Positions 28,112 to 38,570 of a DNA stretch of 64,000 bases are shown one piece after another. How positions within the stretch are numbered: the first letter of the stretch is position 1; every line of letters starts with the position of its first letter. The DNA comes from an uncultured Chloroflexia bacterium (lineage in GTDB: Bacteria > Chloroflexota > Limnocylindria > Limnocylindrales > CSP1-4). The stretch covers positions 672,001-736,000 of the forward strand of contig CAWHXD010000019.1 of NCBI GenBank assembly GCA_963833225.1, read 5' to 3'. The position numbers and the translations under genes were made by a program. The notes under the pieces were generated by a model. It saw only the letters and a program-made list of their open reading frames with translations, did no database searches and had not been told where the DNA came from.

Positions 28112-29380
28112 TCAGCCCCCGATGTGCGTTCGGCCGATCATCCCCGCGGCGACCGTCTTGTTGCTCGCCTCGTCCACCAGGATGAACGAGCCGGTCTGGC
28201 GGTTCTGCAGGTAGGGGTCCACGAACAGCGGCTGGGTGACGCGCAGCTGCACCCGCCCGATCTCGTTGAGCGCGAGCTCGGTCGCGGCCTCGTCGCGGTG
28301 GAGCGTGTTGACGTCGATCTTGTAGCTGAGCTCCCGGACCATCGCGCGGGCCCAGCGGGTCGTGTGCTTGATCCCGTACTTGCGCCCGGGCACCAGGGTC
28401 GCGCTCTCGTCCATCCAGCACACCTGGGCATCGATGTCCTGGGACACGATCGGCATGTTGTGGGGCCGGCAGATCATGTCGCCTCGCGAGATGTCGATCT
28501 CGTCGGTGAGGACGACCGTGACCGCCATCGGCGGGTAGGCCTCCGCCACCGGACCGTCGGCGGTGTCGATGGACGCGATCGTGGACTCGAGTCCGGACGG
28601 CAGGGCGACCACCTGGTCACCGGGCTTGAGGACGCCGGATGCGACCGTCCCCGCGTAGCCCCGGTAGTCGAGGACCTCGAGGCTCTGCGGCCGGACCACG
28701 TACTGGACCGGGAACCGCACATCCACGAAGTTGCGGTCCGACGCGACGTGCAGCCGCTCGAGGTGCGAGAGGAGCGGGGACCCGTCATACCAGGGCATCC
28801 TCGGGGACCGGGTCACCACGTTGTCGCCGACCAGGGCCGACACCGGGATGAAGGTCATGTCGCGGACCCGGAGACGGGTCGCGAACTCGCCGAACTCGTC
28901 CCGGATCGCCTCGAAGGTCCGCTCCGAGTAGTCCACGAGATCCATCTTGTTGACGCACACCACCACGTGGGGCACGCCCAGCAGCGTGGCCAGGAACGCG
29001 TGCCGGCGGCTCTGCTCGGTGATGCCCTTGCGGGCATCGAGCAGGATCAGCGCCACGTCGGCCGTGGAAGCCCCGGTGACCATGTTCCGGGTGTACTGCA
29101 CATGGCCGGGGGTGTCCGCGATGATGAACTTGCGGCGCGGGGTCGCGAAGTAGCGGTAGGCGACGTCGATGGTGATGCCCTGCTCCCGCTCGGCGCGCAG
29201 GCCATCGGTGAGCAGCGCGAGGTCCGTGTAGTCGTTGCCGCGATCGCGCGAGACGCGCTCGACCGCGTCCAGCTGGTCGGAGAACAGCGACTTGCTGTCG
29301 TACAGCAGACGACCGATCAACGTGCTCTTTCCGTCGTCGACGGATCCGGCGGTCGCGAACCGGAGGAGGTCCATCGGCAT
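28112..29380 (-). CDS. cysN: Sulfate adenylyltransferase subunit 1 (GTPase), no fused kinase domain
   Basis: TAGSVDDGKSTLIGRLL, EREQGITIDVAYRYF, DTPGH, NKMD; TGATG overlap with cysD. Confidence 0.95.
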   Translation of the reverse strand: MPMDLLRFATAGSVDDGKSTLIGRLLYDSKSLFSDQLDAVERVSRDRGNDYTDLALLTDGLRAEREQGITIDVAYRYFATPRRKFIIADTPGHVQYTRNMVTGASTADVALILLDARKGITEQSRRHAFLATLLGVPHVVVCVNKMDLVDYSERTFEAIRDEFGEFATRLRVRDMTFIPVSALVGDNVVTRSPRMPWYDGSPLLSHLERLHVASDRNFVDVRFPVQYVVRPQSLEVLDYRGYAGTVASGVLKPGDQVVALPSGLESTIASIDTADGPVAEAYPPMAVTVVLTDEIDISRGDMICRPHNMPIVSQDIDAQVCWMDESATLVPGRKYGIKHTTRWARAMVRELSYKIDVNTLHRDEAATELALNEIGRVQLRVTQPLFVDPYLQNRQTGSFILVDEASNKTVAAGMIGRTHIGG

Positions 29381-30282
29381 CAGAAGTAGCCTTCCTTCTT
29401 GCGGTCTTCCATGCTGGTCTCGCTGGTCTTGTCGTCGCCGCGGGTCGCGCCCCGCTCGGTGATCCGCACGGCGGCGATCTCGTCGATGATCCGCTCGACG
29501 GTGTCGGCGTGCGACTCCACCGCCGCGGTCAGGTTGGCGTCGCCGACCGTCCGGTAGCGGCACAGGACGCGCCGGGAGACATCGCCGTCGCGGACGGGTG
29601 TGAACTCGTTCACCGCGTACAGCATCCCGCCCCGCTCCACGACCTCGCGCTCCTTGGCGAGGTACAGCTCCGGGATCTCGATCCGCTCCGCCCCGATGTA
29701 GGTCCAGATGTCGAGCTCGGTCCAGTTCGAGAGCGGGAACACGCGGATGCTCTGGCCCAGGTGGACCCTGCCGTTGTACAGGCTCCAGATCTCGGGCCGC
29801 TGGTTCTTGGGATCCCACTGGCCGAACTCGTCGCGGAACGAGAACACGCGCTCCTTGGCGCGGGCCTTCTCCTCGTCGCGCCGGGCGCCACCGAACAGCG
29901 CGTCAAACCGGTGCTTCTCCGCCGTCTCGAGCAGGACCGGCGTCTGGATCCGGTTTCGCGAGCCGTTTGGCTCCTCGCGGACCACGCCGCGAGCGATGGC
30001 GTCGGGCACGGACGCGACGACGAGCTTGAGGCCCAGCTTCTCGATCCAGCGATCCCGGTAGGCGAGGATCTCGGGGAAGTTGAGGCCCGTGTCCACGTGC
30101 ATCACCGGGAACGGGATCCGCGCCGGCGCGAACGCCTTGCGGGCGACGTGGAGCATCACGATCGAGTCCTTGCCACCCGAGAACAGGAGACACGGGCGCT
30201 GCATCTCGGCCGCGACCTCGCGGAAGATGTGGATGCTCTCGGCCTCCAGGGAACGGAGCTGGCTGAGGGAATGCGTGGTCAC
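29380..30282 (-). CDS. cysD: Sulfate adenylyltransferase subunit 2
   Basis: LEAESIHIFREV, FSGGKDS, GGARRDEEKARAKER, WDPKNQRPE, MEDRKKEGYF. Confidence 0.95.
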   Translation of the reverse strand: MTTHSLSQLRSLEAESIHIFREVAAEMQRPCLLFSGGKDSIVMLHVARKAFAPARIPFPVMHVDTGLNFPEILAYRDRWIEKLGLKLVVASVPDAIARGVVREEPNGSRNRIQTPVLLETAEKHRFDALFGGARRDEEKARAKERVFSFRDEFGQWDPKNQRPEIWSLYNGRVHLGQSIRVFPLSNWTELDIWTYIGAERIEIPELYLAKEREVVERGGMLYAVNEFTPVRDGDVSRRVLCRYRTVGDANLTAAVESHADTVERIIDEIAAVRITERGATRGDDKTSETSMEDRKKEGYF

Positions 30283-31145
30283 TCGGGTGCTCCTGGGGCG
30301 TCGTCCGGCCCGGCCTCCGCCAGCAGGCGGCGCACGTGGGCGACGAGCGCCGCATGGCAGACCAGCAGGTCCGGAGACCACGGGTCCGGCTTGTTGTACA
30401 CGATGGGGGAGCCGTCGAGGCGGGTGGCGACGAGCCCCGCGGCATGCGCCACGGCGACGGGTGCGGCGGAATCCCACTCGTATTGTCCGCCGGCGTGGAT
30501 GTAGGCATCCACCGCGCCCTCGACCACGGCGATCACCTTGACGCCGTTGGAACCCATGGGCACCAGCTCCACGTCGTCGCGGACGGCGAGCCTCCCGACG
30601 ACGGCGGGCGGACGGGTCCGTGACGCCGCGATGCGCACGGGGCGGTCGCCGGCCAGGACAGCACGAGCGGCGTCAGCGGTGGCCGGTGGCACGGACCCGC
30701 TGTGGAAGACCTGGCCACGTCCGGGGAGCGCCACGGCACCGGCGACCAGCCCGCGTTCGCGGTCCCAGAGCGCGACGTGGACCGCGAAGTCGGTCCGCCG
30801 GCTGCCGTCCGGGTCGATCTCGGCGAACTCCCGGGTCCCATCGAGGGGGTCGATGATCCAGACCCGCGCCGCCGCGAGGCGCGCAGGATCCTGCTCGGCT
30901 TCCTCCGACAGGATGGGATCGGCGGGCCGATGCTCGGCGAGGGCCGCGGCGAGCCAGGCCTGGGCTGCCGCATCTCCCGCGGCCCCGAGCGCCCGGCCGT
31001 CGAGGGGCAGGTCGCCTGTCCCGGCGCGCGCGCGGAGCGCCACCAGCACCCGGCCGGCGCCCTCCGCGAGGGCAGCAGCGAGGCGGACGTCGTCGCTGAG
31101 GTCGGCCGCCCGTGTCCCGGGGGCGCCCACGCGCTCGCTCGTCAC
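30279..31145 (-). CDS. cysQ: 3'(2'),5'-bisphosphate nucleotidase (PAP phosphatase)
   Basis: [31 protein letters not shown] overlap with cysD. Confidence 0.9.
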
Positions 31146-37311: not shown

Positions 37312-37352
37312 CCGGTCGGAAGCCTGGGACCATCAGCGGCCGCCGAACGCCG

Positions 37353-38570
37353 TCAGCTCGCGGGTCCCGGCGAGCGGCGCCGGACCCGGTGGAGCCGGCG
37401 CCGGAGCGATGACACGATCCGCCGGCTGACATAGCCGCGAATCGCGTATGTCGCGACCATGGACATGTCCTCGCGCGTCTGCGCCGGGCCCGGTCGGGCC
37501 ATGCCGGTCGCGATGAGCATGCCGACTCCAAGGGTGGCGGCCACCTCCGGGCTCCCGAACGCGTCCGGCGTCGGCCGTCCGCCAGGCTCTGGCACGAGGG
37601 CGAGGCCCGGAAGGTCGCCGATGACGCGGACGCCGCTTGCCCCGATGCGCTCGACGTTGGCCGTCGCCTCGGCCCGGACGTGGTCGAGGGCCCAGTCCGG
37701 GAGTTCGATCCTCGGGGCCACGGGATCGGCGGGATGGTCCTTCATGTACCGGCTTGCGCCGTAGTGCATGACGCGGTGCAGCTCGACGCGGCTCAGGCCG
37801 TCGGCCCGCACCCTGGTGTTGAACTGGCGCACGGCCTCGGCCTCGGGCCAGGTCAGGCTCCGGTTGCCCAGCTCCTCCTGCTCCTTGAGGAGCCCGCGCT
37901 CGAGCCCCAGCAGGCTCTCGAAGTCACGCAGGACGCCGCCCCGATCGCCCTCGCGGATCGCCAGCACGGTGACGCGGTCGGGACCAACGGCCTCCGCCCA
38001 GCGCGCGACCAGCTCGTGGTGGCGATGCCGCCGCCAGAACCCGGGCGTCACCTTCGCGTCGCCACGCTCGAACATCGCGCGGAGCCACTCGTCCCAGGAC
38101 GTCGTCATGCCGTCGCATACGAACTGCATCCACTGGGACGGCAGGATCCTGGCCAGCGGGCGGAGCGTGATGACCACCCGGACCCGGTCGGCGCCCAGGT
38201 CGTCCACGATCCGGCGCACGACGCCCGGCGGCGCGTCGGCGAAGAACTCGCTGCTCACGACCACCCTGGACTCCGGGGCCCGGTGGATCTGGTCCACGAG
38301 GTTCGTCCACCGCTGGATCGGCGGGACGACGCCGCCCGCGAATGCCGACGCGCGCCCGAGCACCGCGTGGACGGAGCCCGCCGGGTGCCGGTTCGGCCCG
38401 GCGTGTCGCACGCCCTGACGGCGGAGCGCCGGCCGAGCCGCGTACAGCGACGCCTGGACCTGGGTGGTCGCGGTCTTGGGCGGCCCGATATGGACCAGGA
38501 TGGAGCCGTCGGGGATCGGCTCGATGGCGGGATCACCGCTGGCTGCCGGGTCGCCGGTATCGTGTTCCAC
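37353..38570 (-). CDS. Sulfotransferase-fold P-loop protein (paralog C)
   Basis: LVHIGPPKTATTQVQ, VVSSEFF, VVITLRP...SQWMQ, NRSL. Confidence 0.7.
   Translation of the reverse strand: MEHDTGDPAASGDPAIEPIPDGSILVHIGPPKTATTQVQASLYAARPALRRQGVRHAGPNRHPAGSVHAVLGRASAFAGGVVPPIQRWTNLVDQIHRAPESRVVVSSEFFADAPPGVVRRIVDDLGADRVRVVITLRPLARILPSQWMQFVCDGMTTSWDEWLRAMFERGDAKVTPGFWRRHRHHELVARWAEAVGPDRVTVLAIREGDRGGVLRDFESLLGLERGLLKEQEELGNRSLTWPEAEAVRQFNTRVRADGLSRVELHRVMHYGASRYMKDHPADPVAPRIELPDWALDHVRAEATANVERIGASGVRVIGDLPGLALVPEPGGRPTPDAFGSPEVAATLGVGMLIATGMARPGPAQTREDMSMVATYAIRGYVSRRIVSSLRRRLHRVRRRSPGPAS

Follow-up and report, generated by a model that had tools for sequence, protein, structure and literature searches.

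The locus described here lies in a 64,000-nucleotide window (the whole stretch of DNA analysed) on contig CAWHXD010000019.1 of an uncultured Chloroflexia bacterium. Positions 28112-38570 of the window carry genes for the supply of activated sulfate, 3'-phosphoadenosine 5'-phosphosulfate (PAPS), together with three homologous genes that a sequence-only reading had proposed to encode sulfotransferases. Because the window is ~70% G+C, genes were called via GC content at the third codon position (GC3), and the products were then searched against the Pfam and NCBIfam families. Every gene named in the earlier reading was found in 28112-38570 at the coordinates it had given; its list had omitted one gene, that of an Eis-like GNAT acetyltransferase between the second and third paralogs. 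The features are as follows (APS, adenosine 5'-phosphosulfate; PAP, 3'-phosphoadenosine 5'-phosphate).

28112-29380, (-) strand: cysN, 422 residues, GTPase subunit of ATP sulfurylase (NCBIfam and Pfam)
29380-30282, (-) strand: cysD, 300 residues, adenylyltransferase subunit of ATP sulfurylase; GTG start
30279-31175, (-) strand: cysQ-like gene of the inositol-monophosphatase family, 298 residues, probable PAP phosphatase; GTG start
31176-31298: divergent intergenic region of 123 bp separating the cysQ-like and TauE starts; presumably a promoter region common to both
31299-32279, (+) strand: TauE/SafE-family (TSUP) membrane permease, 326 residues (Pfam)
32276-33556, (+) strand: cysC, two-domain APS kinase, 426 residues; residues 1-245 ATP-sulfurylase-like, residues ~250-426 kinase
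33566-34783, (-) strand: paralog A of the sulfotransferase-fold family, 405 residues
34786-36012, (-) strand: paralog B of the sulfotransferase-fold family (the one modelled), 408 residues; AGGAGG precedes the GTG start
~36052-37311, (+) strand: Eis-like GNAT acetyltransferase, between paralogs B and C (Pfam and NCBIfam)
37353-38570, (-) strand: paralog C of the sulfotransferase-fold family, 405 residues; divergent from sufB

Gene layout and PAPS supply

The cysQ-like gene, with GAGGAG 5' of its GTG, leads an operon in the order cysQ-D-N whose genes are joined by stop/start overlaps: the cysD GTG at 30282 overlaps the cysQ-like stop, and the cysN ATG at 29380 overlaps the cysD stop. The TauE stop and the cysC ATG also overlap (ATGA). 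Paralogs B and then A, with 2 bases between them, run convergently with cysC. A MarR regulator and an RND pump flank the module on one side and sufB/sufD on the other. An Rfam scan of the whole window matched no family, so no riboswitch accounts for regulation of the locus. Pfam scans of 53 window open reading frames found no cysH, sulfite reductase or cysteine synthase, which bears out what had been said of the window. A search of sequencing runs with sampled words listed no RNA run, and the best DNA runs carried 0.05-0.16 of the words.

CysN scored above the cut-off of the NCBIfam equivalog NF003478 (600.5 bits; cut-off 590), with 580 bits to TIGR02034 and a match to Pfam GTP_EFTU; CysD likewise exceeded that of NF009214 (436.7 bits; cut-off 413) and matched Pfam PAPS_reduct at 8.5e-42. 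With both equivalogs above cut-off and the two genes adjacent, the pair is an ATP sulfurylase. The permease belongs to the TauE/SafE (TSUP) family (PF01925, 139 bits; cut-off 32.6). We infer that it supplies the pathway by importing sulfate, and its substrate and direction of transport are likewise presumed. The cysQ-like product is a clear member of the inositol-monophosphatase family (PF00459 Inositol_P, 103.8 bits; cut-off 27). The specific name CysQ was not reached: the best NCBIfam model was TIGR01331 bisphos_cysQ (94.8 bits; cut-off 228.8), and NF008182 gave 54.1 bits (cut-off 379). Its position in the operon and the precedent of Mycobacterium tuberculosis, in which an inositol-monophosphatase-family CysQ removes the PAP that inhibits a sulfotransferase (available text of PMC3141025), make it a probable PAP phosphatase.

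CysC is an APS kinase, as had been proposed (PF01583, 8.4e-55; TIGR00455, 175.4 bits, cut-off 138.7), and a profile search found it to be the sole APS kinase of its genome. The protein is longer than supposed, a 426-residue two-domain enzyme with an ATP-sulfurylase-like N-terminus of 245 residues. GC3 of the cysC frame is high from ~32250 on, in agreement with the long form, which is kept in 18 relatives at 47-66% identity. A predicted model (predicted local distance difference test score, pLDDT, 86) matched 1m8p over its whole length (Z 27.8, 401 residues aligned), followed by 2gks (Z 24.3) and 3cr8 (Z 20.7). The kinase domain aligned with known structures at Z 24-26 and a root mean square deviation (rmsd) of 1.3-1.6. 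Residues 1-246 matched ATP sulfurylases (1r6x, Z 15.8, 223 aligned, rmsd 3.4; 4maf, Z 15.7), at only 11-18% identity to real sulfurylases, and the N-terminal domain (window 32276-33010) matched no Pfam family, ATP-sulfurylase and PUA_2 included. The best PDB sequence match of CysC was 3cr8, over the kinase part. The N-terminal sulfurylase-like domain of 3cr8 is reportedly inactive; that of CysC is probably a degenerate, non-catalytic remnant of the same kind.

Fold and PAPS-site motifs of the paralogs

The three paralogs are indeed homologous proteins of about 400 residues (405-408), related by BLASTP at 48% identity for A and B (E 4e-114), 43% for A and C (E 6e-89) and 46% for B and C (E 2e-95). 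All the motifs listed for them, H[IV]GP[PH]KT[GA]TT, SSE[GF]F, TLRP..S[EQ]W, NRSLT, WALD and SG[AV]RVIGDL, were seen in the translations. A family profile run against the genome of origin recovered A at 9.2e-166 and C at 2.1e-160. Counted in 50%-identity clusters, the family comprises 1,514 members at E<=1e-30, 3,691 at E<=1e-10 and 11,026 at E<=0.001. More than 2,097 matching 90%-identity clusters are called 'hypothetical protein' wherever they are named. The expectation that such proteins would be annotated as hypothetical holds for NCBI, which labels relatives so, those from Streptomyces included, and fails for UniRef, which names some of them 'Sulfotransferase family protein'. The nearest ESM Atlas clusters carry the same automatic name with no Pfam family in common, and scattered members of the family give weak Sulfotransfer_4 matches.

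AlphaFold2, supplied with a 38-sequence alignment, produced a model of paralog B with a pLDDT of 85.4 and a predicted template modelling score of 0.80, in which a single alpha/beta domain of sulfotransferase topology is evident. The top PDB match in Foldseek was 3rnl (E 1.4e-6), followed by N-deacetylase/N-sulfotransferase 1 (NDST1) and the heparan sulfate 3-O-sulfotransferases (3-OSTs). In VIA-align the order was NDST1 (1nst; Z 16.9, 235 aligned, rmsd 3.6), 3rnl (Z 16.5) and the 3-OSTs (Z 15.3-15.8), with cytosolic, natural-product and tyrosylprotein sulfotransferases next at Z ~9-11. A search of 48,161 chains that was independent of Foldseek placed sulfotransferases at all of ranks 1-15, and the first kinase appeared at rank 16 (Z 9.3, 160 aligned). 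The structural check that had been proposed for the paralogs thus came out on the side of sulfotransferases, and the reading that their best matches are kinases fails because the top 15 of the 48,161 chains are sulfotransferases.

PAPS-dependent sulfotransferases carry a 5'-phosphosulfate-binding (5'-PSB) loop with the consensus PKxGTT and a 3'-phosphate-binding (3'-PB) motif with the spacing R-x7-S. Residues H21, G23, P24, K26, T27, T29 and T30 (B numbering) are invariant in 38 of 38 aligned family members, G28 nearly so, and the set lies on strand 18-22, a loop and helix 29-38 of the model. The likeness of the KTGTT loop to the 5'-PSB loop, noted earlier from the letters, is borne out by this placement: the K26 element has the strand-loop-helix form and conserved lysine of a predicted 5'-PSB. 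T129, R131 and S139 are likewise invariant in the 38-sequence alignment and lie on strand 124-130 and helix 133-146, where R131, with S139 eight residues on, would form the strand-helix 3'-PB. Paralog A retains all the invariant residues, K26, R131 and S139 included. The catalytic base of NDST and 3-OST is a glutamate; candidates for the base in the paralog family are the invariant S100, S101 and E102 of the SSE motif and H21. Both motif positions correspond to those described for a solved bacterial sulfotransferase in the accessible part of PMC13291958. Sequence and model together suggest that paralogs A, B and C carry out PAPS-dependent sulfotransfer.

Near the C-terminus of each of the three paralogs is a moderately hydrophobic stretch (19-residue Kyte-Doolittle hydropathy 1.3-1.6), after which comes an Arg-rich helix; 9-11 of the final 40 residues are Arg or Lys. 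This tail suggests that the paralogs work at the cytoplasmic face of the membrane, the meeting point of PAPS and lipid-linked glycan precursors.

Thirty longer relatives were also considered, and 27 of them (743-941 residues; P0249-P0253, P0402-P0424) showed no second Pfam family apart from a weak Sulfotransfer_4 match here and there. Where checked, they consist of two paralog-family domains in tandem, which may reflect either genuine fusions after duplication or gene calls that merged neighbouring paralogs such as A and B. They say nothing on the acceptor and were dropped as evidence for it. In a phylum-wide sample the family was found in 0 of 200 other genomes, a weak negative given that only 9 first-look candidates per genome were scored. 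A literature search on the family (Limnocylindria, Streptomyces, teichoic acid, sulfated cell-wall glycopolymers) returned no paper on it, most subscription journals being outside its coverage.

Linkage to PAPS genes and the search for a reductive branch

Gene presence was scored by tblastn within 10 kb of the family gene at 78 related loci, 27 labelled Chloroflexota and 51 labelled Actinomycetota. At the 27 Chloroflexota loci cysC was detected 25 times, cysN 22, TauE 19 and the cysQ-like gene 18, the non-detections falling mostly on short contigs; each locus holds 1-5 paralogs. Other conserved neighbours at these loci (AlkZ-like, DUF2252, EamA, alpha-amylase and sufBD) give no hint of an acceptor. 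The Eis-like GNAT protein (Acetyltransf_9, Acetyltransf_17 and SCP2_2; NF002367, 297.6 bits, cut-off 259) is encoded at 12 of the 27 loci, and its membership in the sulfation module is uncertain.

A DNA search of three congeners, with annotation of the regions found, showed how the locus is laid out in each. In congener G273, genes for MarR, AI-2E and AlkZ are followed by the block cysN, cysD, cysQ, TauE, cysC and one paralog, then by DUF2252 and, further on, sufB; the Eis-like gene is absent from this module. AlkZ directly adjoins DUF2252 in G079, from which the module is absent, and in G246 only an AlkZ-like fragment stands in the 1.7 kb between MarR and sufB on a single contig. Neither G079 nor G246 (97% and 94% complete) has an APS kinase, a member of the paralog family, Sulfotransfer_3 or Sulfotransfer_1. 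The PAPS genes and one paralog-family gene are exactly the block that is gained or lost within the genus.

At the G273 locus (L089, G273:C1:565000-584900) a second paralog (G273:C1:584939-586033) was also noticed downstream of sufBD, not upstream. LPG_synthase_TM and DUF2252 genes lie between the G273 module and sufB, and the paralogs move independently of the PAPS core.

Across the 81 genomes of the GTDB family, the paralog family occurs in five (the genome of origin, G000; G273; G225; G227; and, weakly, G206) and a full-length APS kinase (E<1e-30) in 21, a count that excludes a 52-bit match in G178. All five family-positive genomes have the kinase, against 16 of the 76 family-negative ones. 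When sulfotransferases of either kind, paralog family or Sulfotransfer_3, are counted, APS kinase accompanies them in 17 of 18 genomes (the exception, G230, is 54% complete) and occurs in 4 of the 63 genomes that have neither; no P value is given because kin genomes are not independent. Sulfotransfer_3 genes lie 0.1-6 kb from cysC in G211, G252, G214, G253, G270, G262, G241 and G228, and the slot next to cysC is held by the paralog family in G000, G273 and G225. In G225 (93% complete) the PAPS genes are accompanied by a single family gene, 149 bp away from cysC, and neither Sulfotransfer_3 nor Sulfotransfer_1 was matched. Our verdict is that the module is real and that the paralogs are an uncharacterised branch of the known sulfotransferase superfamily.

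Two canonical sulfotransferase genes lie elsewhere in the genome of origin.

G000:C8:15102-15827 (L084:1303-2376), (-) strand: Sulfotransfer_3 gene (Pfam)
G000:C6:304434-305093 (L085:1312-2361), (-) strand: Sulfotransfer_3 gene (Pfam)

The C6 gene stands between mreBCD and rmlA/rmlD-like genes, near a gene for a surface protein with FlgD-Ig domains, a context that hints at a sulfated rhamnose-containing wall polymer.

The sequence-only reading had called for a genome-wide search for cysH and sulfite reductase. The genome of origin (3.89 Mb in 20 contigs, 86% complete) has cysD as its sole PAPS_reduct match by profile search, and neither cysH nor a NIR_SIR sulfite reductase was found in it. The same searches applied to 14 reference genomes as controls detected PAPS_reduct in 14, NIR_SIR in 11 and APS kinase in 11. 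In the relatives G273, G225 and G227 the only PAPS_reduct match is again cysD, with no NIR_SIR; G206 (79% complete, weak family match) has no match to either model. Of the 81 GTDB-family genomes one has NIR_SIR (G231, which is without APS kinase), and none of the 21 with APS kinase does. The lineage as a whole seems to lack the reductive branch. With neither a PAPS/APS reductase nor a sulfite reductase found in the organism or its relatives, PAPS is therefore made for sulfation and not for cysteine, which supports the earlier view of the pathway as one of sulfation, not sulfate assimilation. Members of the GTDB family presumably depend on reduced sulfur.

Several other gene sets in the window were recorded. 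Window 16789-20020 (+) encodes an ArsR regulator, two DsrE-like proteins and a sulfide:quinone-oxidoreductase-like flavoprotein (Pyr_redox_2 + FCSD_central), possibly for sulfide/persulfide handling. Window 7000-11775 (+) encodes a ferredoxin/NAD-binding protein, an Oxidored_q6 small subunit and a NiFeSe_Hases large subunit, resembling a soluble [NiFe]-hydrogenase set, and is followed at 13587-15796 (-) by a pyruvate:ferredoxin-oxidoreductase-like pair. Two paralogs of Lgt (prolipoprotein diacylglyceryl transferase) are encoded at 49383-50579 (+) and 59014-60015 (+), the first followed by an acyltransferase gene.

Acceptor, competing explanations and known systems

Evidence on the acceptor came from neighbourhoods and gene fusions of family members outside the genome of origin. 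Neighbourhood clustering took 16 of the 51 actinomycete loci, 7 from Streptomyces and 9 others. At all 7 Streptomyces loci the family gene has the same flanks: it lies between a PhoD gene and four cell-wall-polymer genes, which encode a TarI/TarJ-like IspD-SDR fusion, Glyphos_transf, a GT2+TarS_linker protein and a polysaccharide pyruvyl transferase. Elsewhere, L036 carries LytR_cpsA_psr and a hexapeptide transferase, L025 a PMT mannosyltransferase two genes off, and L042 Acyl_transf_3; PGM_PMM is directly downstream in L029 and L032, and L029 also has GT2, PIG-L and ATP-grasp genes. In the fusion protein P0327 (981 residues) a family domain (4-385) is followed by a complete GT2 (415-605) and then by a TarS_linker (629-728). 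In P0426 and P0427 a GT4 glycosyltransferase is fused to a family domain that retains HIGPHKTGTT, SSE, R...S and NRSLT. P0391 gave only a weak TarS_C1 match. P0425, an apparent fusion of family, AT3 and SGNH domains (1386 residues), was rejected as a probable mis-called frame, the first 76 family residues being absent and AT3 and SGNH present as fragments. The fusion evidence for a glycan acceptor is thin but coherent. Neighbours, fusions and nearest folds together give roughly even odds that the acceptor is a sugar of a cell-envelope glycopolymer or of a lipid-linked glycan precursor.

We propose that the locus is a self-contained sulfation module in which paralogs fed with PAPS modify an envelope glycan, and put the probability of this as the whole explanation at about 0.65. 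The TauE-family permease would import sulfate, CysD/CysN would form APS, and the two-domain CysC would phosphorylate APS to PAPS. The three paralogs, cytoplasmic enzymes with the heparan-sulfate-type fold, would then sulfate the acceptor at hydroxyl or amino groups, with PAPS as the sulfuryl donor, and the CysQ-like phosphatase would clear the inhibitory by-product PAP. The acceptor glycan would be modified on the cytoplasmic face of the membrane prior to export, and each of the diverged paralogs may serve its own position or sugar. A more specific version is tentative, and we would sooner bet against it than for it. It makes the paralogs a wall teichoic-acid-like or glycopolymer sulfotransferase family of single-membrane bacteria (Limnocylindria-type Chloroflexota, Streptomyces and other Actinomycetota) that would act with TarS-like glycosyltransferases on the cytoplasmic face, the 1-5 paralogs per genome writing a strain-variable pattern of sulfate esters.

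A number of observations weigh against the proposed module. Paralog B gave 14.7 bits to Sulfotransfer_4, below the cut-off of 22.8, and A and C gave no Pfam match at E up to 10; NCBIfam has no model for any of the three, and phmmer and the 38-sequence profile found nothing among all PDB chains. With no curated model above threshold, the paralogs are therefore filed in no curated family. An hhalign comparison of the family profile with a Sulfotransfer_3 protein of the same genome returned a probability of 0.4%. Synteny at the 27 Chloroflexota loci does not amount to 27 independent observations, since the loci are kin, and any of cysD, cysN, cysC or cysQ was found within 10 kb at 0 of the 51 Actinomycetota loci; the expected co-occurrence with PAPS genes thus holds for cysC at 25 of 27 Chloroflexota loci, for APS kinase in five of five genomes and for joint gain and loss, and fails among Actinomycetota. 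The assemblies of G227 and G206 have the family gene on one contig and cysC on another. On the acceptor side, window Pfam scans detected no glycosyltransferase or polysaccharide-export gene near the module; the contexts outside Streptomyces are mixed, those of L035, L045, L061 and L066 being uninformative on glycans; and the glycosyltransferase fusions are few (one GT2/TarS cluster and two GT4), all metagenomic. The genome of origin is 86% complete, so the missing cysH is not by itself proof of absence. Its two canonical Sulfotransfer_3 genes also count here: the enzymes would share the PAPS, so the module is not reserved for the three paralogs, and they could be its main users.

That last point can be extended to an explanation in which PAPS mainly feeds the two Sulfotransfer_3 enzymes and the paralogs are there by shared ancestry, doing other things, for instance as PAP(S)- or nucleotide-binding regulators or kinases. 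The Sulfotransfer_3 genes (80.9 and 60.2 bits) do co-vary with the PAPS genes in the genus, being present in G000 and G273 and absent from G079 and G246; the paralogs reach no curated sulfotransferase threshold, their actinomycete homologues are without nearby PAPS genes, and P-loop kinases share part of the fold at Z up to 9.3-9.6. Against this, G225 combines the PAPS genes with a family gene and, at 93% completeness, shows no Sulfotransfer_3 or Sulfotransfer_1 match, and the insertion/deletion block in G273 holds a family gene and no Sulfotransfer_3 gene. P-loop proteins follow the Walker rule GxxxxGK[ST], to which the loop GPHKTGTT does not conform, and sulfotransferases align with the model ~7 Z units higher than kinases and over ~70 more residues. 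We regard this explanation as very unlikely. Ordinary sulfate assimilation, with the reductive enzymes missed as unassembled or of an unrecognised type, seems to us more improbable still. Escherichia coli assimilates sulfate with the same cysD, cysN and cysC, the genome of origin is only 86% complete, and the reductive search rested on two Pfam models, PAPS_reduct and NIR_SIR. Those models succeeded in 14 and 11 of the 14 control genomes, however, and the four genomes (85-94% complete) that combine PAPS genes with a strong match to the family have no second PAPS_reduct and no NIR_SIR. The single NIR_SIR among the 81 GTDB-family genomes is in one without APS kinase, and APS kinase tracks sulfotransferase genes (17 of 18 with them, 4 of 63 without). 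The place of the CysQ-like gene in the operon also speaks against assimilation.

An explanation closer to the proposed module keeps the paralogs as PAPS-dependent sulfotransferases and gives them a membrane lipid, a small metabolite or a peptide/protein as acceptor; precedents are the pairs Stf0/sulfolipid, Sam10/saccharomicin and RaxST/RaxX. We think it unlikely, while giving it more weight than the two explanations above. Fold likeness to polysaccharide sulfotransferases does not settle the substrate, the hydrophobic and basic C-terminal tail would fit a lipid acceptor equally well, and no glycan genes adjoin the module in the window. In Nocardiopsis, one locus carries a gene for the sulfolipid-addressing SfLAP ~4 kb off, and at 12 of the 27 loci the paralogs are accompanied by the Eis-like acetyltransferase, whose family acts on amines and small molecules. 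What tells against a non-glycan acceptor is the fusion of family domains to GT2/TarS-like and GT4 glycosyltransferases and the teichoic-acid-like context in Streptomyces; moreover, no polyketide synthase, non-ribosomal peptide synthetase or ribosomally synthesised peptide precursor cluster was seen beside the module in the window or among the conserved neighbours of the 27 loci.

The fold, the conserved PAPS-site residues, the joint gain and loss with PAPS genes and the glycosyltransferase fusions turn the sulfotransferase assignment into a testable one. Bacterial polysaccharide sulfation is thinly documented, and the available text of a 2026 paper still regards sulfated polysaccharides as unusual among bacteria other than cyanobacteria (PMC13390465). 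If the family is a marker of sulfated envelope polymers in Chloroflexota of soils and in Streptomyces that can be cultured, it opens the question to genetics. On the tentative reading of the paralogs as a wall-glycopolymer sulfotransferase family, sulfation of wall polymers would be a widespread envelope modification not yet described, and lineages without sulfate assimilation would carry it on a cassette that is gained and lost and that supplies its own PAPS. The lineage is also a clean case of cysDNC kept for sulfation alone, and a caution against calling 'sulfate assimilation' from these genes in metagenome annotation.

Among known proteins, the nearest folds to paralog B are NDST1 (1nst), 3-OST-1/3/5 and the Alicyclobacillus protein 3rnl (Z 15.3-16.9, 221-237 aligned, rmsd 3.5-3.8 over model residues 15-320). 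They share with it the strand-loop-helix with the conserved Lys and the strand-helix with Arg and Ser at the PAPS phosphates. NDST1 and the 3-OSTs act on the sugars of a polymer, and 3rnl is uncharacterised. The differences are substantial: identity is only 12-16% and no sequence search connects them, the paralog family has ~90 extra C-terminal residues (the hydrophobic segment and Arg-rich helix) that NDST1, the 3-OSTs and 3rnl lack, and it is bacterial and cytoplasmic whereas NDST1 and the 3-OSTs are Golgi-lumenal. CysC shares its two-domain layout with 3cr8 of Thiobacillus denitrificans and with the ATP sulfurylase-APS kinases 1m8p and 2gks; its N-terminal domain (245 residues) is shorter than in proteins of the 1m8p/2gks/3cr8 type.

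As a gene arrangement, the module resembles the capsule cluster of Vibrio sp. KMM 8419, which according to the portion of PMC11641403 available contains a second, dedicated cysC/cysN/cysD set with three sulfotransferase genes; the same portion calls PAPS genes plus sulfotransferases a hallmark of sulfated polysaccharide synthesis. As described there, the Vibrio set is part of a capsule locus of 80 genes that also encodes glycosyltransferases and an ABC exporter, and its sulfated polymer has been solved chemically (PMC11641403), whereas the module here is known from genes alone and has no glycan locus. In that account the Vibrio set is a second copy; here cysDNC is the only set in the genome, the sulfotransferase family is an uncurated one, and the host is a monoderm of the Chloroflexota type. 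The CysDNC/CysQ/Stf0-Stf3 system of M. tuberculosis is alike in that CysD/CysN and an APS kinase supply PAPS, the products there being envelope molecules (available text of PMC3141025). By the same text, M. tuberculosis has an APS reductase, a sulfite reductase and scattered genes, in contrast to a compact module without the reductive branch, and its cysC is fused to cysN, whereas cysC here carries the degenerate ATP-sulfurylase-like domain. The mycobacterial Stf0, Stf1 and Stf9 are more distant from paralog B in fold (Z 8.6-9.6).

A dedicated PAPS supply paired with a sulfotransferase is also said to operate in the Sinorhizobium Nod factor system (NodPQ-NodH), where the acceptor is a lipo-chitooligosaccharide, and reportedly in the Xanthomonas RaxX system (RaxPQ-RaxST), where it is a peptide tyrosine. 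The hosts of the Nod, Rax and saccharomicin (Sam) systems retain sulfate assimilation. Each of these three systems has a single sulfotransferase of a curated family, against three uncurated paralogs here. Sam35-Sam10, in the part of PMC13291958 that is available, likewise joins a dedicated PAPS supply to a sulfotransferase that serves a single product, the acceptor being an antibiotic sugar. What sets the present module apart from the known pairings of PAPS supply and sulfotransferase is an uncurated branch with a C-terminal tail, PAPS genes that are the only ones in the genome and lack a reductive branch, a cassette that is gained and lost as a block, a degenerate sulfurylase domain on CysC, and the lack of an attached glycan locus.

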